Shown here one piece after another: positions 9,674 through 56,908 of a stretch of DNA of 64,000 bases (position 1 is its first letter; the number at the start of each line of letters is the position of its first letter). The notes below the pieces were generated by a model. The model was not told the DNA's origin. It saw nothing but the letters and a program-made list of their open reading frames with translations, and ran no database searches. This DNA is from Deltaproteobacteria bacterium. Lineage in GTDB: Bacteria > Desulfobacterota > RBG-13-43-22. Position numbers and translations under genes: made by a program. The stretch covers positions 3,846 through 67,845 of the forward strand of contig JACRBX010000047.1 in assembly GCA_016219225.1 (NCBI GenBank), read 5' to 3'.

Positions 9674-10447
9674 TTGACTGATCCGATTGGAAAAATAAAA
9701 AAATTTTGGGATGATCGGGCACTAAATGACGATTTGTCGGAAGATCTACTTACTCATCGTGACAAAAATCAGAGAATGTTGGAGATTGAGACCCTATCGT
9801 CCCACCTTCCATACAACCAACATATCCTGGATATCGGTTGTGGAAATGGCTTTTCAACGGCCTTATTCTCCAAACAGGCCCAAAAAATTGTTGGTCTTGA
9901 CTATTCCGGGGCTATGATTGAGCGGGCCAAAAACAATTTTGGACATCTTCCTAATATTGAATTCAAGGTTCAAGATGTGCTCAATTTGGATTTCCCGGAG
10001 TGTCATTTCGATGTTGTTATTTCTCAGCGATGTCTGATTAATCTTGGAACCTGGGAAAATCAACAAAAGGCCTTGCTGAACATTAAAAAGGTTTTAAAGC
10101 CCGGCGGTTTTTTCCTCCTTCAGGAAGGGACACGGCAAGGGCGGGAAAAATTAAATCAAACGAGGGAAATTTTCGGCTTGGACCGCATGCCGGAGGTGTC
10201 TTTTAATCTTGATTTTGATGAAGACAAACTCTGGCCTTTCATCCGGCAGCATTTTGATATTGTCGAAATTCGCCGGTTTGGGCTTTATGATTTGATTTCA
10301 CGGGTGGTGCATCCTCTTTTGGTCAGTCCCGCCAAACCCGAATACGATGCCGAAATAAATAAGATTGCCCGGCGCCTTTCCCGGTTAAGGGGAATGGAAG
10401 AGTTGAGTCGAGAGTTCAGCGCCTTTTTGCGTCGCTTGGACGAGTGA
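9674..10447 (+). CDS. class I SAM-dependent methyltransferase
   Basis: Motif I ILDIGCGNGFST; TTG start as given by the ORF track. Confidence 0.65.
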   Translation: MTDPIGKIKKFWDDRALNDDLSEDLLTHRDKNQRMLEIETLSSHLPYNQHILDIGCGNGFSTALFSKQAQKIVGLDYSGAMIERAKNNFGHLPNIEFKVQDVLNLDFPECHFDVVISQRCLINLGTWENQQKALLNIKKVLKPGGFFLLQEGTRQGREKLNQTREIFGLDRMPEVSFNLDFDEDKLWPFIRQHFDIVEIRRFGLYDLISRVVHPLLVSPAKPEYDAEINKIARRLSRLRGMEELSREFSAFLRRLDE

Positions 10448-41305: not shown

Positions 41306-41544
41306 CATGCCCGCACGAACACCACGAAACATGAAAATGCGAATATCGAATATCGAATATCGAATCATGAATATCGAAGGAGAGTTTCCTTTTAATTCCG
41401 AAATCCGAAATCTAAAATCCGAAATCGGAATATATTTTCGTACTAAGCCCCCATGCCTGTTTTGTAGGCCACGAACAATGAAAATGGGTTTCGCCGAACG
41501 CCGAACGCTTAACGCCGAACGTTTTTTTCGTACTAACTCCCATG
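41306..41544. repeat. Tandemly duplicated ~100-150-nt leader unit with three different embedded 7-mer arrays (ATCGAAT, TCCGAAA, GCCGAAC); the hdrL ATG lies inside the unit's terminal motif
   Basis: Each unit runs catgccYg ... cacgaaNcaNtgaaaatgNg ... 7-mer array ... tttcgtactaaScccatg; the second unit ends with the hdrL start codon. Confidence 0.6.
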
Positions 41545-44500
41545 AATCAAACCGTAGACCATAAAATTGGAGCCGTATTAATTGCCGGGGCCGGTATATC
41601 CGGCATGCAATCGGCCCTGGATCTGGCCAATGCGGGCTTTAAGGTCTATCTGGTAGAGAAGAACATCAGCATTGGCGGGGTTATGGCCCAGTTGGACAAG
41701 ACCTTTCCGACCAACGACTGTTCCACTTGTATGATTTCCCCTAAATTGATCGAAGTAGCCGGTAACCCCAATATCGAAATTATAACCCGGACCCGGATAA
41801 AAGGGATCGAGGGAGAACCGGGGAATTTTACCGTTGCTTTATATCGGGAACCCCGATTGATCAAGGAAGAGGCCTGCACCGGATGCGGAGAATGTATTAA
41901 GGCCTGTCCCGTCGAAGTCCCGGCCGATTTTAATCTTGGGCTCAACCGCCGGAAGGCCATTTACCGACATTTTCCACAAGCCGTACCTTCGGCCTTTGCC
42001 ATCGACCGGCGGGGTACCTCTCCCTGCAAGGCCGCCTGCCCGGCTCACATCAGCGTCCAGGGCTATGTGGCCCTGATTGCCCAGGGAAAGTTTGCCGAAG
42101 CCCTGAATCTCATTCGGCAGGAAAACCCCCTGCCTTTTGTCTGCGGTTATGTTTGTACCCATCCCTGCGAAGAAGCCTGTTTGCGACAAGAGGTGGATGC
42201 CTCGGTAGCCATCCGGGACCTCAAGCGCTTTGTGGCCGATTATGAGAGAAATCAAGAACCGGTAAGGCTTCCCCTGGTGGAAGGGAAAAAGCCCCGGAAG
42301 ATAGCCGTTGTTGGCTCCGGGCCGGCCGGGCTGACCTGCGCCTATTATCTAACTTTACAGGGATATTCCGTAGAGGTTTTTGAGGCCTTGCCCGTGGCCG
42401 GGGGCATGTTGACCGTCGGGATTCCCACCTACCGCTTGCCCAAAGAGGTGGTGGCAAGGGAAATTAAGGCCATTGAAGGCCTGGGGGTCCGAATTCATTT
42501 GAATGCACCAATTGGGCCTGATCATACTCTGGCAGATCTCAAAGAGAAGGGATTTGAGGCCGTTTTTATCGGTGTCGGGGCCCATCAAGGGATTCGTTTA
42601 GGGCTTGAAGGGGAAGACCTGGAAGGTGTGGTGGCCGGAGTGGATTTCCTCAGGCGGACAGCCCTGGGTCAACAGAAATCGTTGGGGAAAAAGATAGCCG
42701 TCATAGGCGGCGGCAATGTGGCCATCGATTCCGTACGGACCGCCCTGAGGATGGGGGCCGAAGAGGCCATGGTCCTTTACCGGCGGACCCGGGAGGAAAT
42801 GCCGGCCTACGAAGAAGAAATTGAAGAGGCCCTTGAGGAAGGGGTGTCCATCCATTACCTGACCGCCCCGATGAAATTTATTGGAGATGAAGGGGGCAAG
42901 CTTAAAGCCATTGAATGTCTTAAAATGGAGTTGGGTGATCCGGATGCCTCGGGCCGACGGAGACCGGTACCCATCGAAGGTTCCCTTTTTACGATTCCCG
43001 TAGACGGGGTGATTACGGCCGTCAGCCAACAACCAGAGATGGAAAAGCTGAAGCTTCCAGCAGGCGTTAAGGTTTCTCCCTTTGGGACCCTGGAGGTCGA
43101 TCCGGTTACCTTTCAGACCGACCTTCCCTGGGTTTTTGCCGGTGGAGATGCGGTTTCCGGGCCAAAGACGGTTATCGAGGCCATAGCCGCAGGCAAGGAA
43201 GCGGCTCTTTCCATTGATCGTTTTTTACAAGGGAAGGATCTGGCCGCGGACCGGGAGAAAATTTTCGAACCGGCCCGGCCGGATATTCAGGGTATAGCCA
43301 AATCCCCTCGTTGTAAACCCCGGCGAACCGATCCCAACAGACGCCGGACCCGATTTGAAGAAGTGGTCCAGGTCATGACCGAAGAGGAAGCCCGGACGGA
43401 AGCGGCCCGCTGTCTGGCCTGCGGAATCTGTTCCGAGTGCTATCAATGCCTCGAGGCCTGCAAGCCCGGGGCTATCGATCATGCCATGAAAGGAGAGGAT
43501 ATTTCTCTTCAGGTGGGGGCGGTTATTTTATCTCCCGGGTTTGAAATCTTTGATGCCCGTCTTAAAGGAGAATACGGTTACGGCCGATATCCCAATGTCT
43601 TGACCAGTTTGGAATTCGAACGCCTCCTTTCGGCCTCCGGTCCCTTTATGGGTCATATCCAGCGGCCTTCAGACGCTCAGGAACCCCGGAGGGTGGCCTG
43701 GATCCAGTGTGTCGGCTCCAGGGATGCCTCCATCAACCAGGATTACTGTTCCTATGTCTGCTGTATGGTTGCTACCAAGCAGGCCGTTATTGCCAAAGAA
43801 CATTTGCCTTCTCTGGAACCGACGATTTTTTTTATCGACCTGAGGGCCCAAGGCAAAGGCTTTGACCGTTATTATGAACGGGCCAGGCATGAGCATGGGG
43901 TCCGCTATGTGCGCAGTATGATTTCCCGGGTGGTGGAGCATCCCAAGACCCACGATTTAATCATCTCCTATATTGATGAGAACAATGCTTTCCAGAATGA
44001 GGAATTCGACCTGGTAATCCTTTCGGTAGGCCTCAAGCCCCATTCCGAATCCCGGCAGCTCGCCCGGATATTAGATATCCGGACCGATCGCTTTGGTTTC
44101 AGCCAGGCGCCGCCTTTTAATGCGCTGGGAACTTCTCAACCGGGAATTTTTGCCAGCGGTGTCTTTCAAAACCCCAAGGATATTCCGGAGACGGTAACCC
44201 AGGCCAGCGGTGCAGCCGGGGAAGCGGCCGCCTTGCTCTCGGGGGCCCGGGGCACGAAGATCAGGGAATTGGTCTTTCCGGAAGAACGGACGGTGGCCGG
44301 GGAAGAACCGAAGATCGGGGTGCTGATCTGCCATTGCGGCATCAATATCGCCGGGGTGGTGGATGTGGATCAGGTGACGGAATATGCCAAAACCCTGCCC
44401 CAGGTTGTTTATGCCGATCACTTCCTTTTTACCTGTTCGACGGACAGCCAGGAACGGATGCAGCAAATCATAAAAGAACAGGGCTTGAACCGGGTTATCG

Positions 44501-45963
44501 TGGCCTCCTGTTCCCCCCGGACCCACGAAGGTTTATTTCAAGATACGCTGCGCAAGGCCGGACTGAATAAATACCTCTTTGAGATGGCCAATATCCGTGA
44601 CCAATGCTCCTGGGTCCATCAGAGCGAACCGGGGCTGGCCACGGAAAAGGCCAAGGATCTGGTGCGCATGGCCGTGGCCCGGGCCGGGCGTTTGGAATCC
44701 CTTTATGACCGTCCGCTCGATGTAATCCAAAAGGGCCTGGTCCTAGGCGGGGGTGTGGCCGGGATGACGGCGGCCCTCAACCTGGCCGAACAGGGATTCG
44801 AGACCTGCCTGATCGAACAATCCGATCGGTTGGGTGGCCAGGCTTTGAGACTGCATCAGACCCTGGAAGAAAGGGGTGTGCAGGATTATGTGGGCCGGTT
44901 GATTAAACAGGTAACCGAACATGCCGGGATTCAGGTCTATACCGAAAGCCAGGTCCTGGACATGAAAGGGTCTATCGGCCAATTTACGAGTACTATTGCA
45001 AAAAACGGGGAAAAGGTCTCGATTGACCACGGCGTGGCTATTGTGGCAACCGGGGCCTCGGAGTATCTGCCGAAAGAGTATCTGTTTGGGAAGCATCCCG
45101 GTGTGGTCACCCAACTGGAATTCCAGGACTGGCTTTTTCAGCAACCGGAAAAAATCCAGGGGGCTAAGCAGGTCGTCATGATCCAATGTGTGGGTTCCCG
45201 GGAAGAAGAGCATCCCTACTGCAGTCGGGTTTGTTGTTCCACGGCGGTGGCCAATGCCTTAAGGATCAAGGAAATCAGCCCGAAAACCGAGGTTATTATC
45301 CTGTACCGGGATATGCGGACGTACGGCCGGAAAGAGCTCTATTATAAACAGGCCAGGGAGGCCGGCGTCCGGTTTATCCGCTTTGATTTTGAAGTCAAAC
45401 CCGAAGTCGTGGAAGAAGGAGGCGGCTTGAAGGTCACGGTTATGGACCAAAGCCTTAAAGCCTACCTCATCCTTAGGCCGGATTATCTGGCCCTTTCAGC
45501 GGCCATACGCCCGGCCCCGGAAATTAAAAATCTGGCCACAACGCTGAAACTCCCGCTGGATGCCGATGGTTTTTTCCTGGAGGCTCATATTAAACTGAGA
45601 CCCTTGGACTTTGCCAATGCCGGGATGTTTCTCTGCGGTCTGGGGCACGGCCCTAAATCCCTGGAAGAAAGCATTGTCCAGGCTAAAGGGGCCGCAGCCC
45701 GGTCAGCCACGATCCTGGGCCAGAAACAGATTCAGGTCGGCGGTAAGACGGCTGTGGTGGATGAAGAGTTATGCATCGCTTGTCTGACCTGTGTCCGGGT
45801 GTGTCCTTTTGGGGTTCCCATGATCAATGAACGCCATTTTGCTGAAATGAACCCGGCCGCCTGCCAGGGATGCGGGAACTGCGCCACGGCCTGTCCCCAG
45901 GGGGCCATTCAGGTAGGCCATTCCAAGGACGAACAGTTTATAGCTTTATTGGAGGCGTGTTGA
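41542..45963 (+). CDS. HdrL-type giant flavoprotein: HdrA N-terminus + 2x[4Fe-4S] ferredoxin + GltD/NfnB-like NAD(P)H domain + second HdrA-like module
   Basis: GAGISGMQSALDLA (HdrA FAD site); CxxCxxCxxxCP ferredoxin motifs; KIAVVGSGPAGLTCAYYL...GGMLTVGIPTYRLP (GltD-like); two CVGSRD..CSxVCC Cys clusters; second Rossmann VLGGGVAGMTAAL. Confidence 0.75.
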   Translation: MNQTVDHKIGAVLIAGAGISGMQSALDLANAGFKVYLVEKNISIGGVMAQLDKTFPTNDCSTCMISPKLIEVAGNPNIEIITRTRIKGIEGEPGNFTVALYREPRLIKEEACTGCGECIKACPVEVPADFNLGLNRRKAIYRHFPQAVPSAFAIDRRGTSPCKAACPAHISVQGYVALIAQGKFAEALNLIRQENPLPFVCGYVCTHPCEEACLRQEVDASVAIRDLKRFVADYERNQEPVRLPLVEGKKPRKIAVVGSGPAGLTCAYYLTLQGYSVEVFEALPVAGGMLTVGIPTYRLPKEVVAREIKAIEGLGVRIHLNAPIGPDHTLADLKEKGFEAVFIGVGAHQGIRLGLEGEDLEGVVAGVDFLRRTALGQQKSLGKKIAVIGGGNVAIDSVRTALRMGAEEAMVLYRRTREEMPAYEEEIEEALEEGVSIHYLTAPMKFIGDEGGKLKAIECLKMELGDPDASGRRRPVPIEGSLFTIPVDGVITAVSQQPEMEKLKLPAGVKVSPFGTLEVDPVTFQTDLPWVFAGGDAVSGPKTVIEAIAAGKEAALSIDRFLQGKDLAADREKIFEPARPDIQGIAKSPRCKPRRTDPNRRRTRFEEVVQVMTEEEARTEAARCLACGICSECYQCLEACKPGAIDHAMKGEDISLQVGAVILSPGFEIFDARLKGEYGYGRYPNVLTSLEFERLLSASGPFMGHIQRPSDAQEPRRVAWIQCVGSRDASINQDYCSYVCCMVATKQAVIAKEHLPSLEPTIFFIDLRAQGKGFDRYYERARHEHGVRYVRSMISRVVEHPKTHDLIISYIDENNAFQNEEFDLVILSVGLKPHSESRQLARILDIRTDRFGFSQAPPFNALGTSQPGIFASGVFQNPKDIPETVTQASGAAGEAAALLSGARGTKIRELVFPEERTVAGEEPKIGVLICHCGINIAGVVDVDQVTEYAKTLPQVVYADHFLFTCSTDSQERMQQIIKEQGLNRVIVASCSPRTHEGLFQDTLRKAGLNKYLFEMANIRDQCSWVHQSEPGLATEKAKDLVRMAVARAGRLESLYDRPLDVIQKGLVLGGGVAGMTAALNLAEQGFETCLIEQSDRLGGQALRLHQTLEERGVQDYVGRLIKQVTEHAGIQVYTESQVLDMKGSIGQFTSTIAKNGEKVSIDHGVAIVATGASEYLPKEYLFGKHPGVVTQLEFQDWLFQQPEKIQGAKQVVMIQCVGSREEEHPYCSRVCCSTAVANALRIKEISPKTEVIILYRDMRTYGRKELYYKQAREAGVRFIRFDFEVKPEVVEEGGGLKVTVMDQSLKAYLILRPDYLALSAAIRPAPEIKNLATTLKLPLDADGFFLEAHIKLRPLDFANAGMFLCGLGHGPKSLEESIVQAKGAAARSATILGQKQIQVGGKTAVVDEELCIACLTCVRVCPFGVPMINERHFAEMNPAACQGCGNCATACPQGAIQVGHSKDEQFIALLEAC

Positions 45964-45967
45964 AAGA

Positions 45968-46146
45968 AAGGTGTAAGGTACAAGGTATAAGGTGTAAGGT
46001 AAAACCGTTCGGCGAACATTAAATGTTCAGTGTGCGTCAATCAACCCATTTAAACCTGACATCTTGAACCTGGGCTAACTATTGGGGGAAGGTGTAAGAC
46101 ACACGGTTGGTTTTACCTTGAACCTTGAACCATGTACCTTGCACCG
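45968..46146. repeat. Inverted pair of AAGGTNN 7-mer arrays around a ~100-nt spacer (which contains the palindrome gaacattaaatgttc)
   Basis: aaggtgtaaggtacaaggtataaggtgtaaggtaaaacc ... ggttttaccttgaaccttgaaccatgtaccttgcacc. Confidence 0.7.
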
Positions 46147-46156
46147 TTAATTTATT

Positions 46157-46573
46157 ATGTTTGAATCATTCGAACCTAAAATCATTGCCATGGTCTGTAC
46201 CTATTGTACCTATACGGCGGCTGATATGGCCGGGTCCATGAGATTGCAATATCCCTGGAATGTGCGGATTGTCAAATATCTTTGTACCGGCAAGATCGAT
46301 ATTCAGCACATCTTGAAAGTCTTTGAAAAAGGGGCTGATGCCATCCTGGTCGGCGGCTGAGAAATCGGCGACTGCCATTTCCTGGAAGGAAATCTAAGAG
46401 CCAAAGAACGAGTGGAATATGCTAAAGAACTGTTGAAAGAAATCGGTCTGGAACCCGGGCGACTCGAGATGTTCCACATCGGGGCCTCCGATGCTCCGGC
46501 CTGGGCCAAAGCCGTGACGGAGATGACCAACAGGGCCAGGGATCTGGGGGCGAACCCACTTAAAAGATATTAG
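46157..46573 (+). CDS. mvhD: MvhD-like [2Fe-2S] hydrogenase delta-subunit homolog, selenocysteine-containing (in-frame UGA at 46358-46360)
   Basis: The ORF stops at TGA in GADAILVGG-TGA-EIGDCHF, exactly where MvhD has the conserved Cys of G-C-x-x-GDCHY; translation continues in frame for 70 more codons with the conserved MvhD C-terminus (GNLRAKERVEYAKELLKEIGLEPGRLE) to TAG 46571-46573; hairpin atttcc-tggaa-ggaaat at 46377-46393. Confidence 0.7.
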
Positions 46574-46627
46574 ACAGGATTAACAGGATCCTATTAGATA
46601 ATATTTTTCATAGGTAAAGGATTTTGA

Positions 46628-47311
46628 ATGATCATTGCCAGTCGTAAACCTTTTGAAGAAATCAAAAAGAGTTTAACGCCTTATCAAAATATTCTGGTTG
46701 TGGGTTGCGGGACCTGTGTGGCCGTTTGTCTGGCCGGGGGGAAAAAAGAGGTCGGTCTCTTAGCCAGCCAGCTCAAGATGAGTTTTGGAATAGACCAGAA
46801 AAAGGTGCATATAACGGAAGAAACCCTGGAACGTCAATGTGATCGGGAATTCCTGGAGATGATTCGGGACAAAGTCAAAGACACCGATTGTCTACTTTCT
46901 TTGGCCTGCGGTGCCGGAGTCCAGTTTTTGGCCGAAACCTACTCTGAAAAGGCGGTTTTCCCAGGGGTAAATACAACCTTTATCGGCGTGGCCGAGGCGG
47001 CAGGATTATGGACCGAGCGCTGTCGGGCCTGCGGTGACTGCCTGCTGGCCGTGACCGGCGGGATCTGTCCCCGAACCACCTGCACCAAGGGGCTTAATAA
47101 CGGTCCCTGCGGAGGCATGATCGAGGGAAAATGTGAAGTGGACCCTGAGCGGTCATGTGCCTGGGTTTCCATCTATGATCGGCTGGCCAGGGAAGGACGG
47201 CTCACCCAGATCGAATCCATGCGCCCTCCCGCTGACTTTCGCCGCCGGACCAAACCCGGAAAGGTCCATCATCCGGCTTATCTGAGGAGGTATCATGCCG
47301 GGTCCAAATAA
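46628..47311 (+). CDS. metV: methylene-THF reductase-associated zinc-ribbon/FeS protein (MetV-like)
   Basis: Cys-rich (CGTCVAVC, CRACGDC, CPRTTCTKGLNNGPCGG); directly upstream of and overlapping metF. Confidence 0.65.
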   Translation: MIIASRKPFEEIKKSLTPYQNILVVGCGTCVAVCLAGGKKEVGLLASQLKMSFGIDQKKVHITEETLERQCDREFLEMIRDKVKDTDCLLSLACGAGVQFLAETYSEKAVFPGVNTTFIGVAEAAGLWTERCRACGDCLLAVTGGICPRTTCTKGLNNGPCGGMIEGKCEVDPERSCAWVSIYDRLAREGRLTQIESMRPPADFRRRTKPGKVHHPAYLRRYHAGSK

Positions 47312-48176
47312 GTTTGCCGAAGGATTACGATCCGGGACTTTTATGGTGACCTGCGAGTTGGATCCGCCGAAGGGAACCGATCCAACAAAAGCAAAAAAGA
47401 TAATGGATCTCCTTAAAGACAAGGTACAGGCCGTAGTGGTTTCCGATAATCCGCAGGCCCGAATGCACATGGCCCCCATCGGATTTTGCCGTTATCTCCT
47501 GGATCAGGGCATCGAACCGGTCATGACCATCACCTGCCGGGACCGTAATCGCCTGGCCTTGCAATCCGATCTTTTGGCGGCCGTGGGGCTCGGCATTCAA
47601 AATATATTAGCCGTAACCGGTGATTATATCACCTGGGGCGACCACCCGGAAACCAAACCGGTTTATGATCTGGATTCCGTTCAGTTGATCCGGGCCATTT
47701 CCCTGCTGAATGAAAATAAGAACCTTTCCGGGAATGGGGTTGAAGGGCCATCCCCTTCATTCACCATCGGCGCCGCGGTGACGCTGGCCGGCAACCCGAT
47801 CCTGCCTCAGGTTTTGAAGTTTAGGAAAAAGGTGCAGGCCGGGGCCCATTTTTTTATGAGTCATCCGATTTTTGATCTGGCCGGTGTAGAGGAATTCTTT
47901 AAAGAGAAGAGACCTGACCGGAAAACCCCTTTACTGGCCTCGGTTTGTTTGTTAAATGAGACCCGGATGCGGGAATATGCCCCCGGCAAATACCCCGGTC
48001 TATATATTCCCGAGACTGTTATGAAAAAATTTCGGACCTTAAGTTCGGGAGAATTTCAGGCCGGGATGATGTCCCACACGGTCAGGCTGATTGAAGAGAT
48101 AAAAAAAGACGGCCGCTTCCAGGGGGTCCATTTGATGCTTAACGGCGATGAAGAGCGGATTGTGGAGCTCATTTAA
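47295..48176 (+). CDS. metF: methylenetetrahydrofolate reductase
   Basis: TCELDPPKG N-terminal motif and overall MetF pattern; GGAGG Shine-Dalgarno. Confidence 0.8.
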   Translation: MPGPNKFAEGLRSGTFMVTCELDPPKGTDPTKAKKIMDLLKDKVQAVVVSDNPQARMHMAPIGFCRYLLDQGIEPVMTITCRDRNRLALQSDLLAAVGLGIQNILAVTGDYITWGDHPETKPVYDLDSVQLIRAISLLNENKNLSGNGVEGPSPSFTIGAAVTLAGNPILPQVLKFRKKVQAGAHFFMSHPIFDLAGVEEFFKEKRPDRKTPLLASVCLLNETRMREYAPGKYPGLYIPETVMKKFRTLSSGEFQAGMMSHTVRLIEEIKKDGRFQGVHLMLNGDEERIVELI

Positions 48177-48210
48177 GTTCGGAGTTTTGAGTTCGGAGTT
48201 CGGAGTGAGG
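48177..48210. repeat. GTTCGGA 7-mer array just downstream of metF
   Basis: gttcggagttttgagttcggagttcggagtgagg. Confidence 0.65.
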
Positions 48211-48241
48211 ACTTTGAAATGCAGAAGGAAATAATTACAAG

Positions 48242-49288
48242 GTGAATCCCACTAATTCCAAAGTACTCATCCTCGGCGGCGGCATTGCCGGCCTAACGGC
48301 TGCCCTGGCCCTTGGCCGTTTGAATATACCAGTGGAACTGATCGAAAAATCAGAGGCCCTGGGAGGAATGGCCCGGAATTTTTGTTGTAAGGCCACAGAA
48401 GCCTGCCAGCAATGCGGTGCCTGTCTTATAAATGATGCCCTGGCGGCCTTGACTAAAGAACCCTTTATTGAGATTCATTTGCAAACCGAGTTAACCGCAT
48501 TAAAGATGGAAGCCAAGGAATTTCTCTATACTTATAGCCGCCCTGGGGGGGGCGGCGAGGGAAGGGCCCAGGCCCTTCTCCTGGCAACCGGTTTTACCCC
48601 CTTCAGGGCTGAAGACAAACCCCAGTATCGGTATAAAACCTTGCCCAATGTCCTGACCGGGTTAGATCTGGAAAGACAACTTAAAGACACCGGGAACATC
48701 GTCAGACCATCCGATCGGACCATCCCCCAGTCCATAGCCTTTATTCAATGTGTCGGCAGCAGAGACCTTCATTCAGGACATCCCTATTGTTCTCAGGTTT
48801 GCTGCGGTTATGCCCTGCGCCTGGCCAACCTGATCAAGCATAAGAATCCGGAGATGGCCGTCACTGTTTTTTATATGGACATCCAGACCTTCGGCCAGAA
48901 TTTCCCCCTCTTTATGGAACAAAGCCGAAAGCAAATAACTTTTGTCCGTTCCATTCCCGGCGAAATACAAAAGGGGGAGAACGATCAGGCCGTCTTAACC
49001 TTCCAGAAGGAGACCGGGGCCGGCAGTCAAAAACAAGCCTTTGATCTGGCCGTGCTCTCCATCGGCATCAGACCCGGGCCGGACCATTTGTTTTTAGCGC
49101 AACGATTGGGAATTTCACTAACGCCCGATGGTTTCCTGAGTAAAGACGAAGGGTCTTCCTTCCGGCCGGAAGGGATTTTTTTTGCCGGCACTGTTCAAGG
49201 GCCTAAAGGCATCGAGCGAAGCATTTCCCAGGCCTATCAGGCCGCCGAAGAAGTGGCCGATTATTTGAAAACGAGGTCGAACCAGTGA
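48242..49288 (+). CDS. short HdrA-like FAD-dependent oxidoreductase (lacks the ferredoxin insert)
   Basis: LILGGGIAGLTAA Rossmann motif; FIQCVGSRDLHSGHPYCSQVCC cluster; HdrA C-terminal motif FFAGTVQGPKGIERSISQA. Confidence 0.7.
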   Translation: MNPTNSKVLILGGGIAGLTAALALGRLNIPVELIEKSEALGGMARNFCCKATEACQQCGACLINDALAALTKEPFIEIHLQTELTALKMEAKEFLYTYSRPGGGGEGRAQALLLATGFTPFRAEDKPQYRYKTLPNVLTGLDLERQLKDTGNIVRPSDRTIPQSIAFIQCVGSRDLHSGHPYCSQVCCGYALRLANLIKHKNPEMAVTVFYMDIQTFGQNFPLFMEQSRKQITFVRSIPGEIQKGENDQAVLTFQKETGAGSQKQAFDLAVLSIGIRPGPDHLFLAQRLGISLTPDGFLSKDEGSSFRPEGIFFAGTVQGPKGIERSISQAYQAAEEVADYLKTRSNQ

Positions 49289-50943
49289 TTCCCCTGGAAG
49301 AATTTAAAAAGATTCCCAGGGTGCTCATCCTGGGGAAGGGACTGACGGCCCAGGAAACGGCCGCACAACTGATTTCCTTAGGCTATGAGGTACTGTCGGT
49401 CGATCCCGATGACCAAAGGCCATTGCTGCGGATCGAAGGTTTTGCCGGGGACTTCCAGGTGCAATTTAAATCCGGACAAAAGCAATGGACTGAGGCTGTA
49501 GGCGCCATTGTTTTTGCTCCTGAGTTGGTTGCTGAACCCAAACCAGATGTCTATTCCTTGACCGCTTCCGATCAAATCATAGGTATTGATGGCCTGGTTG
49601 AACTTCTTTCCCCCTCACCTTCACCCCATGGAATGGAAGAATTGGTTCCAGCGGGCCAGTCTCCTTCGGCCTATCCGGCCTTCAGTTCTTCTTCTTATAT
49701 TGCCTTCCTGGTTGGGTTACAGGACGAAGGAAACGTGGCCGAAATGGCCAGGATCTTTTGGCTGGCCTTAAAGATTCGAAAGGAATATCAATCACAAGTT
49801 TATATCTTTTGCCGTCATATCAAGGTGGCCGAAGAGGGGATGGAGAGGCTCTACCAGACTTGCCGGGACGAAGGGGTGATTTTTTTCAAGTTTGATGGGG
49901 CAGGGCCGGAAATGGTCAGGATTGGAGAATCGATCGGCTTGGAATTTGAAGATGCCGTGTTAGGACAGCCTTTTGAATTAAAGCCCGATCTTCTGGTTAT
50001 TGAACCCCTCCAGGTGCTGCCCCGGGAAATCCGGGAATTGGCTGTTTCCGCTCAAATCGGGATGGATGGAATGGGTTTCCTTCAGCCGGCCAATGTTCAC
50101 CTGCTGCCCCAGGCCTCAAAGCGGGAGGGGATATTTATCGCCGGTCCGGGAAAAGGCCCCATGGTCCCTCAAGCCTGTTTGGAAGAAGCCCGGGCCGCGG
50201 CGTTGTCGATCCATCATTTTTTTGAAGGCCGGATTTCAGACCAGATGGACCGGGAGGTTACGGTTGATAAGGGGCTTTGCACCATCTGTCTAACCTGTCT
50301 CCGCTACTGTCCCCATCAGGCCATAGGCTTTACCCACCGGGTTTTTATCCACCCTCTGGCCTGCCGGCGTTGCGGCATCTGTGCCAGTGAATGCCCCATG
50401 GATGCTATACAAATCGCCGGTTTTTCCGATCAGGAGGTGGAGCTGAAATTAGCGGCCCTCCAGGAAAGATGGGAGCAAATGGAAACCGGTCTGGTCAGGA
50501 TGGTTATTTTCGGTTGTCAGCGGTCGGCCGGGAGGGCCTGGGAGGAAGCTCAAAGCTCAAAGCTCAAAGTTCAAAGCGACAACGAAGAGGTGCAAGGTAC
50601 AAGGTATAAGATACAAGGTGAAATCGAATTTATTGCACTGCCCTGTGCCGGAAAGCTGGACCCCGATTATATACTGAAAGCCTTGAGTATGGGGGCCGAT
50701 GGGGTGCTGGTTCTGGCCTGTCCGGAAGAAAATTGTAAATCCTTACACGGGAATACTTACGCCCGGGAGCGTATCCAGGAGGCCCGGCATTATGTGGAAG
50801 AGGCGGGCCTCAATCCGGAAAAGATCCGTTTTAACAATTTATCGAGCAACATGGTTTGGTATTTAAAGGAAATTATCGGGGAATTTATGGATGAACTAAG
50901 CGAATCCAAAATTCCGCAATCCGCAATCCGCAATCCGAAATAG
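49285..50943 (+). CDS. fusion protein: degenerate HdrA-like domain + 2x[4Fe-4S] ferredoxin + MvhD-like domain, with an internal repeat-encoded insertion and repeat-encoded C-terminal tail
   Basis: CTICLTCLRYCP / CRRCGICASECP motifs; MvhD motifs VIFGCQRSAG ... IALPCAGKLD ... GADGVLVLACPEENC; 7-mer arrays at 50546-50616 and 50896-50943 lie in frame. Confidence 0.65.
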   Translation: MIPLEEFKKIPRVLILGKGLTAQETAAQLISLGYEVLSVDPDDQRPLLRIEGFAGDFQVQFKSGQKQWTEAVGAIVFAPELVAEPKPDVYSLTASDQIIGIDGLVELLSPSPSPHGMEELVPAGQSPSAYPAFSSSSYIAFLVGLQDEGNVAEMARIFWLALKIRKEYQSQVYIFCRHIKVAEEGMERLYQTCRDEGVIFFKFDGAGPEMVRIGESIGLEFEDAVLGQPFELKPDLLVIEPLQVLPREIRELAVSAQIGMDGMGFLQPANVHLLPQASKREGIFIAGPGKGPMVPQACLEEARAAALSIHHFFEGRISDQMDREVTVDKGLCTICLTCLRYCPHQAIGFTHRVFIHPLACRRCGICASECPMDAIQIAGFSDQEVELKLAALQERWEQMETGLVRMVIFGCQRSAGRAWEEAQSSKLKVQSDNEEVQGTRYKIQGEIEFIALPCAGKLDPDYILKALSMGADGVLVLACPEENCKSLHGNTYARERIQEARHYVEEAGLNPEKIRFNNLSSNMVWYLKEIIGEFMDELSESKIPQSAIRNPK

Positions 50944-50947
50944 AACG

Positions 50948-51415
50948 ATGGATCGTATTGACCTGAAAAAATTAGACCCCGATTTTAAGCACCGGTTAGC
51001 CCGGGAATTGGGGGGGGAACACATCAAAAAATGTTTTTCCTGCGGGGTCTGCTCGGCCCGCTGCCCCGTAGAAAAAATCGAGCCGGAGTATAACCCGAGA
51101 AAGATCATCCGTATGATCTTGTTAGGCATGGAAGAGGCCTTGCTCAAAGAAGAATTCCTCTGGCACTGTTCGACCTGTTATACCTGTCAGGAATCCTGCC
51201 CCCAGAAGGTTAATTTTACGGAAGTCATCTTCGCCTTGCGCAACCTGGCCGTCCGCAAAGGCCTGGCCCCGCCCGGTATGGGAGCGGCCCGGAATTTACT
51301 CAGTCAGCAGGGTCGGATGTATGAGGTGGGGGATTTTGAAAATGAGAAACGTCAGGAACTGGGGCTGCCGAAGATAATGGGAAACCCGGAGGAATATAAG
51401 AAGCTCTTAGGATAA
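50948..51415 (+). CDS. hdrC: heterodisulfide reductase subunit C-like (2x[4Fe-4S])
   Basis: CFSCGVCSARCPV and CSTCYTCQESCPQKV motifs. Confidence 0.8.
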   Translation: MDRIDLKKLDPDFKHRLARELGGEHIKKCFSCGVCSARCPVEKIEPEYNPRKIIRMILLGMEEALLKEEFLWHCSTCYTCQESCPQKVNFTEVIFALRNLAVRKGLAPPGMGAARNLLSQQGRMYEVGDFENEKRQELGLPKIMGNPEEYKKLLG

Positions 51416-51510
51416 TAATCGAAGTGGTAACGGTTTATTAAAATATCACAGCCGGGGGCGGCTGTGCTACATAAGACTGTGCCCCAAAAGATGGTTGAAT
51501 AAAAACAGGG

Positions 51511-52407
51511 ATGTTTAAATCTGATATGAAATATGCATTCTTTTTAGGCTGTACGGTCCCGGTCCGGAATCTGAATTACGAGCTATCCGCCCGCCTGGTG
51601 GCCCGGAAATTGGGGATGGAGTTGGTCGATCTGGAAGCGTTCCAGTGTTGCGGCTTTCCTCTGAAATCGATCAATTTTTTTGAATCGTTGGTGATTGCTG
51701 CCGCCAATCTGGCCCTGGCCGAGCAGGCCGCTTTGCCGGTCTGCACCTTATGCAGTGCCTGCGGGGGCTCCTTAAGCGAAGCCGATCACCTGCTCAGACA
51801 CAACAGCCCGTTAAAAGAACAGGTTAATGACCGCCTGAAGGTATTGGGTCTGGAATACCAAGGGACCGGGGAAGTCAAACATTTCATCCGCATCCTCTAT
51901 GAGGATCTGGGGCTTGAAAAGATAAAAGAGAAGATCGTACGGCCTTTGACCGGTTTTAGCTTTGCCCCCCATTACGGGTGTCATTATTTCAAACCGGCCG
52001 AGACCGCCGGCGGGATTGACCCGGTGGAAACCCCCCAATCCTTAAGCCGGTTGATCGAGGCAACCGGGGCCGAGGCCCTGGCCTACGAAACCTTGCTTAA
52101 CTGCTGTGGCGGGAGTATTTTAGGGGCCAAGGAAGATCTGGCCAATACCCTGGCCGGGCAGAAGCTGGCGGAGGTGAACCGTTTAGGGGCCACTGGTTTG
52201 GTCTTGATCTGCCCCTTTTGTAATGTCATGTTTGAAGGCCAGCAGAAAAAAATAGAGAAGAAACTGGAACAAAAATTGAAAGTGCCGGTCCTTTACTATC
52301 CCCAGCTTTTAGGGTTGGCCCTGGGGGCCGGGCCGGATGAACTCGGATTTAAGTTGAATCGAATCAAAGACAAGGAATTCTTAAAATATTTTGACAAGGA
52401 GGTCTGA
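51511..52407 (+). CDS. hdrB: heterodisulfide reductase subunit B-like (CCG domains)
   Basis: KYAFFLGCTVP N-terminus; CCG motifs (FQCCGFP, LNCCGGS); true start may be the internal ATG at 51526. Confidence 0.8.
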   Translation: MFKSDMKYAFFLGCTVPVRNLNYELSARLVARKLGMELVDLEAFQCCGFPLKSINFFESLVIAAANLALAEQAALPVCTLCSACGGSLSEADHLLRHNSPLKEQVNDRLKVLGLEYQGTGEVKHFIRILYEDLGLEKIKEKIVRPLTGFSFAPHYGCHYFKPAETAGGIDPVETPQSLSRLIEATGAEALAYETLLNCCGGSILGAKEDLANTLAGQKLAEVNRLGATGLVLICPFCNVMFEGQQKKIEKKLEQKLKVPVLYYPQLLGLALGAGPDELGFKLNRIKDKEFLKYFDKEV

Positions 52408-52408
52408 C

Positions 52409-52840
52409 ATGGAGATCGAAGGCTATTTTTTTCCGGATGATTTATGGTATGATAAAAACCACTTCTGGGCCCGCATCGATGGAGACCAGGTCGTGATGGG
52501 GACAACGGATTTTGCGCAGAAACTGGCCGGTGATATCGGGTATGTGGAAATCCCCGAAGAGGGCCAGAAGGTTCAGCAGGGGAAACCCTTTGGTTCCATC
52601 GAATCCGGGAAATGGGTGGGGCGGATCTACGCTGTTTTTTCCGGAAAGGTGACGGTGGTCAATGAAGCCCTGGAAGATGAGCCGGAATTGATCAATTCAT
52701 CCCCCTATGATCAGGGCTGGATCTGTCAAATCGCTCCGGAAAATCTGGAGGCGGAAAAAGGGAATCTGATGCCGGCTTCGGAATTGAAACCCTTTATTGA
52801 AGCCGAGATGGCCAGGGTTAAGGATTTGATGAACAAATAA
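52409..52840 (+). CDS. glycine cleavage H-protein-like lipoyl-carrier protein
   Basis: GcvH pattern ...FGSIESGKWVGRIYAVFSGKVTVVNEAL with candidate lipoyl-Lys in ESGK; GGAGG Shine-Dalgarno 8 nt upstream; starts 1 nt after the hdrB stop. Confidence 0.65.
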   Translation: MEIEGYFFPDDLWYDKNHFWARIDGDQVVMGTTDFAQKLAGDIGYVEIPEEGQKVQQGKPFGSIESGKWVGRIYAVFSGKVTVVNEALEDEPELINSSPYDQGWICQIAPENLEAEKGNLMPASELKPFIEAEMARVKDLMNK

Positions 52841-52843
52841 AAT

Positions 52844-52926
52844 CAGGCGCAAGGCGCAGGGCACAAGGCGTAAGGTAAAAAAAGAAGAAGATTTTCCTTG
52901 AACCTTGCGCCTTGTGCCTTGCGCCC
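52844..52926. repeat. Inverted pair of AAGGCGN 7-mer arrays (hairpin-forming)
   Basis: caggcgcaaggcgcagggcacaaggcgtaaggtaaaaa ... ttttccttgaaccttgcgccttgtgccttgcgcc. Confidence 0.7.
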
Positions 52927-52945: not shown

Positions 52946-55528
52946 ATGGGATACATTGAAGAGTTAAAGGCCATCGTTGGTGAGGATAATGTCCATACCG
53001 GGAAAATTGATTGTTTCAGTGTCTCCAGGGATCTGTCGGTTCACGAGGGGTTTCCGGAAGCCATCGTTTTCGCCCGTACGACCGAAGAGGTGGTCGGTGT
53101 AGTGCGAATAGCCGGGGCACACAAAATTCCGGTGACGCCCCGGGGGGCCGGGACCAGTGTGACCGGCGCGTCCCTGGCCTCTAAGGGCGGTATCCTGCTG
53201 GACCTTTCCCGGATGAACAAGATCAAAGAGCTCAATAAAAATGACCGGTATGTGATTGTCGAACCGGGGATCGTCTGCAACGCCCTGAATGCCCAATTGG
53301 AACCCACCCACTTTTTCCCTCCCGATCCGGGCAGCGCACCAATCTGCACGGTCGGAGGGATGATCGCCTGTAACGCCAGCGGGGTGCGGGCCGTCAAGTA
53401 CGGGACCACCCGGGACTACGTCATGGGGTTGGAGGTGGTGCTGGCTGACGGCCGGGTTATTCATACCGGCTCCCTGGCGCCGAAGACCGCCGCCGGTTAT
53501 GACCTGACCCATCTGTTCGCCTCTTCCGAGGGGACCCTGGGCATCATCACCGCGGCCACTTTGAAAATCCTGGCCAAGCCGCCTTATATCGCCTTTGCCA
53601 AGGCCACCTTCCCCTCTGTGAAGGCGGCCGGTGATGCCGTGGAAAAGATGCTGACCTCGGGGATCCGCCCGTCTTCCTGCGAAATCCTGGACGACATGTC
53701 GATCGAGGTGGTCAAACAGGCCATGAATCTCGAGTTTGCTCCTGAAGTTAAATGTATTCTGTTCATTGAAATCGACGGCCACAAATTAGAGGTTCAGGAT
53801 TACATTACCCGGATCGACGTCATCTGCCAGGAGGCGGGAGGGCTGGGAAATGAATGGTCCGATGATCCGGCCAAGCGGCTGGTTATGTGGTCCGCCCGAC
53901 AGGGTTTGACGCCCTCCCTGTCGCGGATCAAGCCCGGCTACAGGCTCATGCCTATCGTGGAGGATTTCGGCGTGCCCATCAGCCAGATCCCGGCCACGAT
54001 CGCCGCCATCCAGGAGGTGGGCCGGAAAAATAATATCCCTGTGGCCACCTTCGGTCATATCGGCGACGGTAATCTGCATGCCGTTATCATTATCGATGTG
54101 CGGAAGCAAGAGGAGTGGGAGACCATGCGAAAGGTCGCCCAGGGTTTTGTGGACCTTACCCTGAAATTCAATGGCACTCTGACCGCTGAGCACGGTCTGG
54201 GAATGGCCAAATCGCCTTATATTAAGACCGAGCTGGGCAACAGCCTGGAGGTCATGGAAGGGATCAAGCAGACCCTGGATCCGGGAAATATCCTCAATCC
54301 GGGTAAAATGGGTTTTCAGGACAGTATCCTGGATATCTTCGACCAGTTCGCCTTCGCCCACCTGGTGGAGCACCCGGAAGACCGGCAGAGCTTCGGTGAA
54401 AAAATCGATAATGAGATCCTGGCCTGTATCCAGTGCGGATTCTGCCGGGGCGGCTGTCCAACTTACGGCCAGACCGGCCTCGAATCCATGAATGCCCGGG
54501 GCCGGGTACTGATGGCCTTTAGTCTGATGAGCGGCCGACTGCAACCCTCGGAAGAAATGGCCACCCGTCTTTTTCAATGCACGAACTGCTTGAACTGCAA
54601 GTTCACCTGTCCTTCCAGAGTGGAAGTGGCCGATATCGTCCAGGCGGCCCGTAAACGGTTGGTGGACAGCGGACTTCTTCCGCCGGTATTTCAGAGCAGC
54701 GGGAAGAGCATCGCCCAGTACGGCAACCCCTTCGGGGAGCCCAGGGAGAAAAGGACCGATGTCTTCCCGGCTGGCTTTATACCGGCCCAAAAAGGCGCCG
54801 AGGTCCTGCTCTTCGGCAGCTGTGTGGGGTCTTACCAGGATATCAACCTGATCCCCAATTTGATGACCATCCTGGATAAGGCCGGCATCTCCTATTCGGC
54901 CCTGGGACAGGAAGAAGACTGTTGCGGTTATTTGAGCTACCTGGTGGGGGCCGAGGAAGATTTCAGGAAATGTGTTCAGGCCAATACTCAAAAGTTTGCC
55001 GACCTGGGGGTCAAGGAGATCGTCACCAGTTGTCCTGGCTGTTTCCGGACCCTGTCCAAGCTTTATCCGGCTTACGGCGGGGCAGGGGATATCAAGGTCC
55101 ACCATGTGGTCACTTATCTGAAAGAACTGATGGGCCAGGGGAAGATCCCTTTGAAGGAGAGCAGCCCCATGGTCGTGGCTTATCATGATCCCTGCGATCT
55201 TGGGCGTCACATGCAGGTCTTTGAAGAGCCCCGGGATATCTTAAAACAAATCCCCGGCGTACAACTCAATGAATTTAAGATGAATCGCCTCTTAGCCAAG
55301 TGCTGCGGCAGCGGGGGTGGGGTTAAGGGTTTTGACAACCCCCTTAGTCAGGAGATTGCCTACCAGCGGGTCCTCCAGGCATTGGAAGTCGGTGCTGAGG
55401 TGATCGTTTCCGCCTGCCCCTCCTGCAAGAGCAATTTGACCCAGGGGGCGGCCCGTCTGCGGAAAGAGAAGAAGGGAAAAATCAAAGTTAAGGACATCAC
55501 CGAGGTCATTGCCAATGCCTTGGCCTAA
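52946..55528 (+). CDS. FAD-linked oxidase (GlcD-like) fused to a 4Fe-4S/CCG (GlpC/HdrD-like) domain; D-lactate/2-hydroxyacid dehydrogenase-like
   Basis: FAD-binding PCMH region (RGAGTSVTG); C-terminal CxxCxxC ferredoxin motifs and two CCG motifs (CCGYLS, KCCGSGG). Confidence 0.75.
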   Translation: MGYIEELKAIVGEDNVHTGKIDCFSVSRDLSVHEGFPEAIVFARTTEEVVGVVRIAGAHKIPVTPRGAGTSVTGASLASKGGILLDLSRMNKIKELNKNDRYVIVEPGIVCNALNAQLEPTHFFPPDPGSAPICTVGGMIACNASGVRAVKYGTTRDYVMGLEVVLADGRVIHTGSLAPKTAAGYDLTHLFASSEGTLGIITAATLKILAKPPYIAFAKATFPSVKAAGDAVEKMLTSGIRPSSCEILDDMSIEVVKQAMNLEFAPEVKCILFIEIDGHKLEVQDYITRIDVICQEAGGLGNEWSDDPAKRLVMWSARQGLTPSLSRIKPGYRLMPIVEDFGVPISQIPATIAAIQEVGRKNNIPVATFGHIGDGNLHAVIIIDVRKQEEWETMRKVAQGFVDLTLKFNGTLTAEHGLGMAKSPYIKTELGNSLEVMEGIKQTLDPGNILNPGKMGFQDSILDIFDQFAFAHLVEHPEDRQSFGEKIDNEILACIQCGFCRGGCPTYGQTGLESMNARGRVLMAFSLMSGRLQPSEEMATRLFQCTNCLNCKFTCPSRVEVADIVQAARKRLVDSGLLPPVFQSSGKSIAQYGNPFGEPREKRTDVFPAGFIPAQKGAEVLLFGSCVGSYQDINLIPNLMTILDKAGISYSALGQEEDCCGYLSYLVGAEEDFRKCVQANTQKFADLGVKEIVTSCPGCFRTLSKLYPAYGGAGDIKVHHVVTYLKELMGQGKIPLKESSPMVVAYHDPCDLGRHMQVFEEPRDILKQIPGVQLNEFKMNRLLAKCCGSGGGVKGFDNPLSQEIAYQRVLQALEVGAEVIVSACPSCKSNLTQGAARLRKEKKGKIKVKDITEVIANALA

Positions 55529-56825: not shown

Positions 56826-56908
56826 AAGGTACAAGGCGTAAGGCTCAAGGTAAAAACGGGGAAATTAAAAGGTCTAACCCTTGTGCCTTGTGCCCTGCGC
56901 CTTGCGCC
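56826..56908. repeat. Inverted pair of AAGGNNN 7-mer arrays
   Basis: aaggtacaaggcgtaaggctcaaggtaaaaac ... cccttgtgccttgtgccctgcgccttgcgcc. Confidence 0.7.

Follow-up and report, generated by a model that had tools for sequence, protein, structure and literature searches.

The DNA analysed here, called the window throughout, is a stretch of 64,000 nucleotides from contig JACRBX010000047.1 of a Deltaproteobacteria bacterium. Its plus strand carries a cluster of genes for a methylene-tetrahydrofolate (methylene-THF) reductase and for heterodisulfide reductase (Hdr) modules, and the cluster ends in a gene for a small protein resembling GcvH, the H-protein of glycine cleavage. This protein belongs to a subfamily that we label GcvH*, recognised by the motif E-[ST]-G-K-W-[VL]-G-[RK]. 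A first-pass annotation of the window had proposed the gene order hdrL, mvhD, metV, metF, a short hdrA, an HdrA/ferredoxin/MvhD fusion, hdrC, hdrB and a gcvH-like gene, and this order was borne out gene by gene, in position as well as in strand.

The gcvH* gene (52409–52840) encodes 143 amino acids and is translationally coupled to hdrB (51511–52407). The hdrB stop codon TGA occupies positions 52405–52407, a single base follows, and the gcvH* ATG begins at 52409. A GGAGG Shine–Dalgarno sequence is located within the 3′ end of hdrB (52398–52402), 6 nt upstream of the ATG, so that the spacing of one nucleotide and the perfect ribosome-binding site claimed earlier were both confirmed by reading the sequence. 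The open reading frame (ORF) list places the start at a TTG codon (52391), which is unlikely since the orthologues start with MEIEGY at the ATG. HdrB matches PF02754 in two stretches and contains two intact CCG motifs, a predicted noncubane [4Fe-4S] disulfide-reductase site. It matches the methanogen HdrB structures 9sfi and 5odc with an E value of 9e-68, and all ten cysteines of the CCG motifs are aligned.

The genes preceding hdrB encode the remaining parts of a putative electron-transfer complex. The first, hdrL (41542–45963), takes its name from the Desulfobacterium autotrophicum genome paper, and its product of 1473 amino acids combines HdrA-like flavin adenine dinucleotide (FAD) domains with a GltD-like NAD(P)H module and ferredoxin domains (Pfam Pyr_redox_2, Fer4_20, NAD_binding_8 and Fer4). 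It is followed by mvhD (46157–46573), in which an in-frame TGA (46358–46360) falls within the motif VGG-U-EIGDCHF. Because this TGA is kept at the same position in 11 related loci, with the sequence after it conserved, and a Cys codon replaces it in the Firmicutes homologues, the codon is, on these comparisons, a genuine selenocysteine (Sec) codon, as had been proposed. The methylene-THF reductase is encoded by metV (46628–47311; PF12225, E = 2e-35), whose product is the small subunit of the zinc-ribbon/Fe-S type, and by metF (47295–48176; PF02219, E = 9e-21; methylene-THF reductase part of NF006396), which encodes the catalytic subunit. The short hdrA and the fusion gene of the first-pass annotation are both present, with a refinement. 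The former (48242–49288) is assigned by Pfam to the N-terminal FAD-binding part of HdrA and covers the NCBIfam HdrA2 profile up to about position 561, while the latter (49285–50943; PF02662 FlpD, Fer4) joins a C-terminal HdrA part, covering profile positions 407–770, to a 2×[4Fe-4S] ferredoxin and MvhD. The two pieces look like halves of one split HdrA. Between the fusion gene and hdrB lies hdrC (50948–51415; Fer4_8/Fer4_17; TIGR03290, E = 3e-31).

Fold and sequence signature of GcvH*

The window GcvH* matches the H-protein family PF01597 with an E value of 3e-38 and a score of 130.8 bits against a cut-off of 22.2, and the NCBIfam subfamily NF002270 with 135.6 against a cut-off of 117. Its AlphaFold model, with a predicted local distance difference test score (pLDDT) of 95.7, superimposes on the H-proteins of T. 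thermophilus, pea and E. coli (1onl, 1htp and 3ab9) with template-modelling (TM) scores of 0.84–0.87 and root-mean-square deviations of 1.0–1.3 Å. The model thus indicates that GcvH* keeps the H-protein fold. Lys68 (codon 52610–52612) is located between strands 60–66 and 70–75, at the tip of a predicted β-hairpin, and in alignments it falls on the lipoyl lysine of H-proteins with solved structures, including 1onl. This lysine, on whose presence the first-pass annotation had made a lipoyl-dependent function hinge, is found in all 234 free-standing homologues collected with the signature x-W-[VLI]-G-[RK], and Lys68 is probably lipoylated.

The surroundings of the lysine set GcvH* apart from canonical H-proteins, with which it shares the fold, the lipoyl-lysine hairpin, the passing of the family profile cut-offs and the occurrence near metVF. 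The lysine region reads E-S-G-K-W-V-G-R-I-Y-A in the window and E-S-V-K-A-A-S-D-I-Y-A-P in canonical proteins (ESGKWVGR versus ESVKA(A/V)SD), and the canonical H-E-W near the N-terminus is replaced by H-F-W. In the E. coli H-protein, Glu12, Glu14, Ser67 and the residue following it surround the aminomethyl-lipoyl arm in a cavity; the corresponding residues of the window protein are Asn, Phe, Gly and Arg. The Glu of the H-E-W motif occurs in none of 226 GcvH* proteins, whereas it is present in 49 of 53 canonical ones, and 41 diverse GcvH* members all share E65, G67, K68, W69 and G71. A neighbour-joining tree built with the GcvH homologues of 80 genome loci places the window protein together with its Hdr-linked relatives (L001–L018) in a clade apart from the GcvHs linked to GcvT or GcvP. 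When 1.84 billion cluster representatives were searched, E[ST]GKW was present in 41 of the best 150, and a few more carry close variants such as ETAKW or ESAKW; GcvH* is therefore a large family. All GcvH* sequences derive from metagenome-assembled genomes (MAGs) or metagenomes, and a cluster look-up for cultured hosts returned MAGs only. Judged by its motif and its neighbours, GcvH* is a distinct, widespread and uncharacterised subfamily of H-proteins that looks dedicated to the CCG-domain redox enzymes of anaerobes.

Related proteins with other motifs were also observed. A GcvH-like protein of 148 amino acids with the motif ESGKWAGG and a Cys near both termini occurs in Acidithiobacillus, Thermithiobacillus, Acidihalobacter and their relatives (L082, 787–1233; L211 and L212, both 10001–10447). 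Its gene is always preceded by one for hemerythrin, a gene for a small thioredoxin is close by, and on one plasmid an HdrD-like gene is also nearby; the protein represents another uncharacterised H-protein family.

Gene neighbourhoods of GcvH*

In the genome loci, a CCG-domain protein, either HdrB or HdrD-like, is encoded within two genes of gcvH* in 17 of 17 cases, as against 0 of 46 for canonical gcvH. Conversely, gcvT or gcvP lies near 24 of the 46 canonical genes and near none of the 17 gcvH* genes. To avoid sampling only the relatives of the window, metagenome contigs were scanned with a degenerate DNA pattern of the motif, which yielded 120 loci, 90 of them with a recognisable gcvH* gene. 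A CCG protein is directly adjacent in 55 of these 90 and within two genes in 63; many of the loci lacking such a neighbour stop at a contig edge, and among the loci with at least two ORFs flanking each side the proportion within two genes is 22 of 29. CCG is the top Pfam family (57) in an independent tally of 140 immediate neighbours, followed by Fe-S domains, AMP-ligases, cytochromes c, RACo-like proteins, LplA and FAD oxidases, and neither a sulfurtransferase nor a glycine cleavage system (GCS) family is among the top 25. A homologue of lipoate-protein ligase (LplA/LplB-type) is encoded within three genes in 11 of the 90 loci. GcvP is near GcvH* in a single one of them (L110), where a separate canonical gcvH (ESVKAATD) stands beside gcvPA/PB, so both types coexist in one genome.

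The adjacency of hdrB and gcvH* is kept in all 16 related loci from uncultured Thermodesulfobacteriota MAGs (67–96% identity), and the wider gene order is mostly kept, as far as the contigs extend, in 15 of them. The exception, a Desulfarculia chromosome (L015), has HdrA–HdrA′/MvhD–HdrC–HdrB–GcvH* without MetVF or HdrL. A Syntrophaceae contig (L084) has MetV–HdrA–HdrA′/MvhD–HdrC–HdrB–GcvH*. The association recurs in a different order in Bacillota MAGs, as GcvH*–HdrC–HdrB–HdrA–MvhD–HdrL–MvhD in two of them (L017 and L018) and as HdrL–MvhD–MetV–MetF–GcvH*–HdrC–HdrB–HdrA–MvhD–HdrL in a third (L085). An incidental adjacency of gcvH and hdr genes, which the first-pass annotation had allowed for, was therefore ruled out, as the adjacency is both conserved and specific to the subfamily. 

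HdrCB and GcvH* are also encoded together without MetVF (L015, L017 and L165), and GcvH* stands beside HdrD-like and D-lactate-dehydrogenase-like/CCG proteins even more often than beside HdrCB. The commonest architecture is (LarA)–FAD-oxidase–HdrD-like–GcvH*–HdrD-like–(LplA). Four loci that lack Hdr genes (L086–L089) show GcvH*–(LarA)–FAD-oxidase/Fe-S/CCG fusion, and the same type of gene is found in many metagenome loci. Further architectures are GcvH*–HdrC–HdrB–HdrL–MvhD and GcvH*–fumarate hydratase–HdrA/MvhD–HdrC–HdrB. In the window, the gene directly downstream of gcvH* (52946–55528, plus strand), which the first-pass finding did not include, encodes an 860-residue fusion, assigned by Pfam, of a D-lactate/glycolate-dehydrogenase-like FAD part and an HdrD-like Fe-S/2×CCG part. 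In the PDB it matches D-lactate dehydrogenase (8jdc), glycolate oxidase and LctD best, and 15 of the 16 close relatives have a gene of this type 3′ of gcvH*. The window GcvH* thus sits between both kinds of partner seen elsewhere, HdrCB and FAD/HdrD-like CCG proteins, and the 860-residue fusion is a second candidate partner.

Other recurrent neighbours were noted at these loci. In four metagenome loci (L090, L187, L202 and L205), the alpha and beta subunits of class I fumarate hydratase come after GcvH*, with or without LplA, and HdrA/MvhD–HdrC–HdrB come next, an arrangement that is reminiscent of the logic of a thiol:fumarate reductase. A corrinoid reductive activase of the AcsV/RACo-like type (about 610–650 amino acids) adjoins GcvH* in L103, L145, L151, L190 and L209, and occurs in loci of the LarA–FAD-oxidase–HdrD-like–GcvH* type. 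Neighbours of 600–650 amino acids do not form one family: AcsV/RACo-like proteins account for these five loci only, and the 635-residue protein of L084 is unrelated. 

Proposed role and competing explanations

Because the lysine is invariant, the aminomethyl cavity is lost, GcvT and GcvP are absent nearby and CCG proteins are associated with the gene, GcvH* can be read as a protein-bound dithiol/disulfide substrate of CCG modules, a proposal to which the comparative evidence gives about an even chance. In this mechanism, GcvH* would not be an aminomethyl carrier of glycine cleavage; its lipoyl swinging arm would dock into the noncubane [4Fe-4S] site of CCG proteins. The window protein would be the thiol/disulfide substrate of HdrBC within a MetFV–HdrA–MvhD(–HdrL) complex, and would probably also serve the adjoining D-lactate-dehydrogenase-like/HdrD fusion. 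The oxidation or reduction of substrates at about −200 mV (methyl-/methylene-THF and 2-hydroxyacids) could thereby be linked to NAD(P)H and ferredoxin via the HdrA flavin. What the comparisons show is the fold, the conserved lysine, the signature of the subfamily, the loss of cavity residues, the translational coupling to hdrB and a strong association of this subfamily with CCG genes; lipoylation, docking, a direction of electron flow and any coupling to bifurcation are inferred.

The known thiol/disulfide substrates of CCG enzymes are CoM-S-S-CoB for methanogen HdrB and DsrC for DsrK, which is HdrD-like. As proposed for GcvH*, a dithiol/disulfide is cleaved or formed at noncubane [4Fe-4S] clusters in these systems; GcvH* would differ from both in presenting an intramolecular dithiolane on its own lysine arm. 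Many anaerobes that do not synthesise coenzyme M or B nevertheless have Hdr-like complexes and HdrD-type subunits. The substrate of the CCG sites in these bacterial proteins is a long-standing question, for which GcvH*, easy to recognise by its motif and encoded beside such genes in two phyla or more, is a concrete candidate. More tentatively, and with odds that we place clearly below even, GcvH* may be the long-sought thiol/disulfide substrate of non-methanogenic CCG enzymes at large, including bacterial HdrBC of the Moorella-type MetFV–HdrABC–MvhD complex and HdrD-linked 2-hydroxyacid dehydrogenases. If so, a cytoplasmic, protein-bound lipoyl redox pool would take the role that CoM-S-S-CoB has in methanogens, and in anaerobes would tie the metabolism of lactate, fumarate and C1 compounds to electron bifurcation or confurcation at flavins.

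The closest known complex is the methylene-THF reductase MetFV–HdrABC–MvhD of Moorella thermoacetica (Mock et al. 2014, cited by PMC7325909 and PMC8515935), whose HdrBC substrate, or "second acceptor", is still sought. As in the Moorella cluster, metF, metV, hdrA, hdrB, hdrC and mvhD are all encoded together in the window. The window differs in its split HdrA, its two MvhDs (one fused and one with Sec), its additional NAD(P)H module HdrL and the coupling of gcvH* to hdrB. To our knowledge, no GcvH has been reported in the Moorella cluster.

Several points weigh against the proposal that GcvH* is a dithiol/disulfide substrate of CCG modules. The case for the partnership is comparative throughout, built on neighbourhood and conservation. 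Potentials lie at about −290 mV for the lipoyl couple, −320 mV for NADH, −200 mV for methylene-THF, −190 mV for lactate and about −450 mV for ferredoxin, and the lipoyl potential is expected to lie far below that of CoM-S-S-CoB. NADH-driven bifurcation classically needs a high-potential acceptor, for which the lipoyl couple would accordingly be too low, and lactate or methyl-THF (about −190 to −200 mV) could reduce it only uphill; it seems more plausible that GcvH* is a carrier of middle potential that feeds or drains the flavin of HdrA, possibly along with ferredoxin. A ligase gene lies near only 11 of the 90 metagenome loci, and the 64-kb window contains no lipoate-assembly gene. The window protein also passes the GcvH equivalog profile TIGR00527, narrowly, with 121.4 against a cut-off of 115.85. 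Mutants of the E. coli H-protein cavity still shuttle in vitro when the P, T and L proteins are supplied, and in C. ljungdahlii lipoamide with dihydrolipoamide dehydrogenase (DLDH) did not couple to MetFV, the adjacency of the genes being ascribed to shared methylene-THF. The latter result is not directly relevant to the GcvH* model because that MetFV has no HdrBC and the assay used free lipoamide, yet it supports a function in glycine cleavage. Finally, three GcvH-like domains without the lysine are part of a natural fusion of 1391 residues (P0206: 3×GCV_H, FAD-oxidase, Fer4_8 and 2×CCG), so that association with CCG is not always lipoate-dependent.

This fusion speaks for an alternative in which GcvH* has a structural or regulatory role that does not depend on lipoate, as a subunit binding CCG enzymes through the H-protein fold, the lysine being kept for another reason. 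Proteins with tandem GcvH-like domains that lack the lipoyl lysine (P0212, P0272 and P0347) and the lack of a ligase gene near most loci agree with this explanation. It is nevertheless unlikely, given the lysine in 234 of 234 free-standing GcvH* proteins, the invariant E-x-G-K-W-x-G hairpin and the lipoate-protein ligase homologues that repeatedly adjoin GcvH*.

Alternatively, GcvH* could be a true H-protein of glycine cleavage or glycine synthase that lies near metF only through the shared methylene-THF, as proposed for gcvH/lpdA in clostridial Wood–Ljungdahl clusters. In a stronger version, the dihydrolipoyl H-protein left by glycine decarboxylation would be re-oxidised by HdrBC, and the electrons would reduce methylene-THF. 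The NCBIfam equivalog and subfamily cut-offs that the protein passes, its 40% identity to E. coli GcvH and the common fold favour this explanation. Canonical gcvH and lpdA do lie near metVF in the Wood–Ljungdahl clusters of Clostridium and Acetobacterium, which are acetogen clusters, and in a Pseudomonadota MAG (L051, 8289–15629) a canonical-type GcvH (ESAKAVSD; HLW instead of HEW) stands directly 5′ of two MetV–MetF pairs accompanied by HdrA, MvhD and HdrC, an independent juxtaposition of GcvH, MetVF and Hdr genes. However, GcvT or GcvP is near none of the 17 genome loci and only one of the 90 metagenome loci, the latter having its own canonical gcvH; the cavity residues are replaced across the subfamily; and GcvH* accompanies HdrCB, HdrD-like or lactate-dehydrogenase-like genes in loci without MetVF. 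Taken together, these findings make a function in glycine cleavage unlikely, to about the same degree as a structural one. The neighbours of GcvH* are CCG proteins and not gcvT or gcvP, and yet its members carry the database name "glycine cleavage system protein GcvH". This amounts to a systematic annotation problem, since the name could wrongly imply a capacity for glycine cleavage or the reductive glycine pathway in metabolic reconstructions from MAGs.

The only characterised partnership of a lipoyl protein with Hdr is that of LbpA, an essential lipoate-binding partner of Hdr-like complexes in sulfur oxidisers such as Hyphomicrobium denitrificans, Thioalkalivibrio and Aquifex (Cao et al. 2018, PMC6067878). 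LbpAs have a conserved lipoyl Lys and two strictly conserved Cys, near the N- and C-terminus, and are 26–35% identical to E. coli GcvH. Their genes lie in clusters of the type shdrC1B1AHC2B2 with DsrE, TusA or rhodanese, the ligase sLpl(AB) and the radical-SAM maturation genes LipS1/LipS2. Like LbpA, GcvH* is a single-domain GcvH-like protein with the lipoyl Lys, encoded beside HdrB/HdrC-type CCG proteins, at some loci with its own lipoate-protein ligase, and the proposed swinging arm would reach an Hdr site in both. The first-pass annotation had pointed to sulfur-oxidiser Hdr systems, and a related function, in which the lipoyl arm would carry sulfane sulfur to HdrB, is suggested by this precedent and by the host phylum, Thermodesulfobacteriota, which is rich in sulfur metabolism. 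Judged by the published features of LbpA, this likeness did not hold. GcvH* lacks the Cys pair (the window protein has one Cys, C106, and 83 of 234 members have none at all), is more similar to E. coli GcvH than LbpA is, and is found in anaerobic hosts of the Thermodesulfobacteriota and Bacillota. DsrE, TusA and rhodanese genes are absent both from the top 25 neighbour families and from the window genes at 36.5–64 kb, which all fall in other families. The partners of GcvH* (MetVF, HdrL, D-lactate-dehydrogenase-like and fumarase proteins, not shdrC1B1AHC2B2) belong to carbon metabolism, and family scans turned up no LipS1/LipS2 near GcvH*, although no search was aimed at these two. By these features, with a tree that contains no LbpA sequence, GcvH* is not an LbpA, and a function in sulfur transfer is improbable. 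An LbpA sequence was absent from the PDB, and tblastn searches of plasmids with GcvH* and HdrB yielded canonical GCS operons only (H30) or no sulfur-oxidiser-type Hdr genes. The Acidithiobacillus plasmid protein with Cys near both ends was considered as an LbpA and rejected, as its family is linked to thioredoxin and hemerythrin and not to such Hdr systems.

GcvH of B. subtilis donates lipoyl groups to E2 subunits, and GcvH-L of S. aureus acts in oxidative stress. GcvH-L, encoded in the SirTM–LplA2 operon of Staphylococcus and Streptococcus, resembles GcvH* as a non-canonical H-protein paralogue that has a ligase of its own and works outside glycine cleavage; it differs in its sirtuin/macrodomain operon, in having no CCG partner and in its low identity to the window protein (23% in a structural alignment with 5a35). 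That GcvH* is such a relay or antioxidant, merely kept reduced by the CCG protein, is the least probable explanation: two loci with 2-oxoacid dehydrogenase E2 genes, a LipB–LipA fusion and a ligase (L083 and L122; in L083, GcvH*, an HdrD-like gene and the ligase directly follow the dehydrogenase operon and the fusion) and the thioredoxin- and hemerythrin-linked ESGKWAGG protein would fit it, but neither an E2 target nor a lipoate-assembly gene is nearby at most GcvH* loci, the window among them, and the window gcvH* is translationally coupled to hdrB in an energy-metabolism operon.

The suggestion of a lipoyl-dependent Hdr variant specific to MetF can now be qualified. Because the lysine is invariant and the adjacency conserved, the link between a lipoyl protein and Hdr is a well-supported hypothesis; its restriction to the MetF–Hdr context is not upheld, since GcvH* also occurs without MetVF and beside HdrD-like genes. 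As to novelty, GcvH beside metVF was already known from clostridial clusters, whereas its link to Hdr appears undescribed: a search of the full-text literature, with subscription journals outside its coverage, found no paper pairing GcvH with HdrB/HdrC or HdrD and none describing a GcvH-like Hdr partner outside sulfur oxidisers. The kind of partnership is thus known from LbpA, and the GcvH* subfamily within it is previously unrecognised.

Repeats and flanking genes

A perfect 24-bp hairpin built of heptad repeats (52853–52925, plus strand; −54.8 kcal/mol, z = −7.6) separates gcvH* from the downstream FAD/CCG gene. It is probably a transcript 3′ end or a stabiliser, and since it follows gcvH*, this gene would end the hdr transcription unit and not start the next one. 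The 7-nt repeat AAGGYRY forms runs in the intergenic segments 45968–46000, 46100–46145, 52850–52925 and 56826–56844, with 10 intergenic matches against 0.1 expected, which looks like a lineage-specific family of elements similar to repetitive extragenic palindromic (REP) sequences. Heptad-like repeats also occur in frame within the gene for the HdrA C-terminal part/ferredoxin/MvhD fusion (50560–50640; …VQGTRYKIQGE…), at a loop that differs by about 14 residues between orthologues; the repeats seem to have expanded or contracted within this protein loop.

A scan for promoters and terminators at 41–56 kb gave the same counts as shuffled sequence. None of the following was found in the 64-kb window: genes for lipoate ligase and lipoyl synthase, which had been suggested as neighbours to look for, other lipoate-assembly genes, and genes for Lpd, E2, GcvT, GcvP or LarA. 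An ORF of 85 codons (41307–41564) overlaps the start of hdrL by 23 nt, matches no Pfam or NCBIfam family and is of doubtful status as a gene. The ten largest of the 34 ORFs predicted at 1–36 kb, with no Wood–Ljungdahl gene among them, either lack a Pfam match or are genes for cell-surface sugars, transporters and acyl-CoA ligases.

Beyond the FAD/CCG fusion, the segment 55604–62706 encodes a single 2-hydroxyacyl-CoA-dehydratase/benzoyl-CoA-reductase-like subunit, an ATP-dependent activase, an AMP-forming ligase, an amidohydrolase_2 protein and an aldehyde:ferredoxin oxidoreductase. Of these, the dehydratase/reductase-like subunit, the activase and the AMP-forming ligase are kept after the FAD/CCG gene in many relatives. 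These genes may constitute a 2-hydroxyacid or aromatic-acid pathway that feeds the FAD/CCG dehydrogenase.

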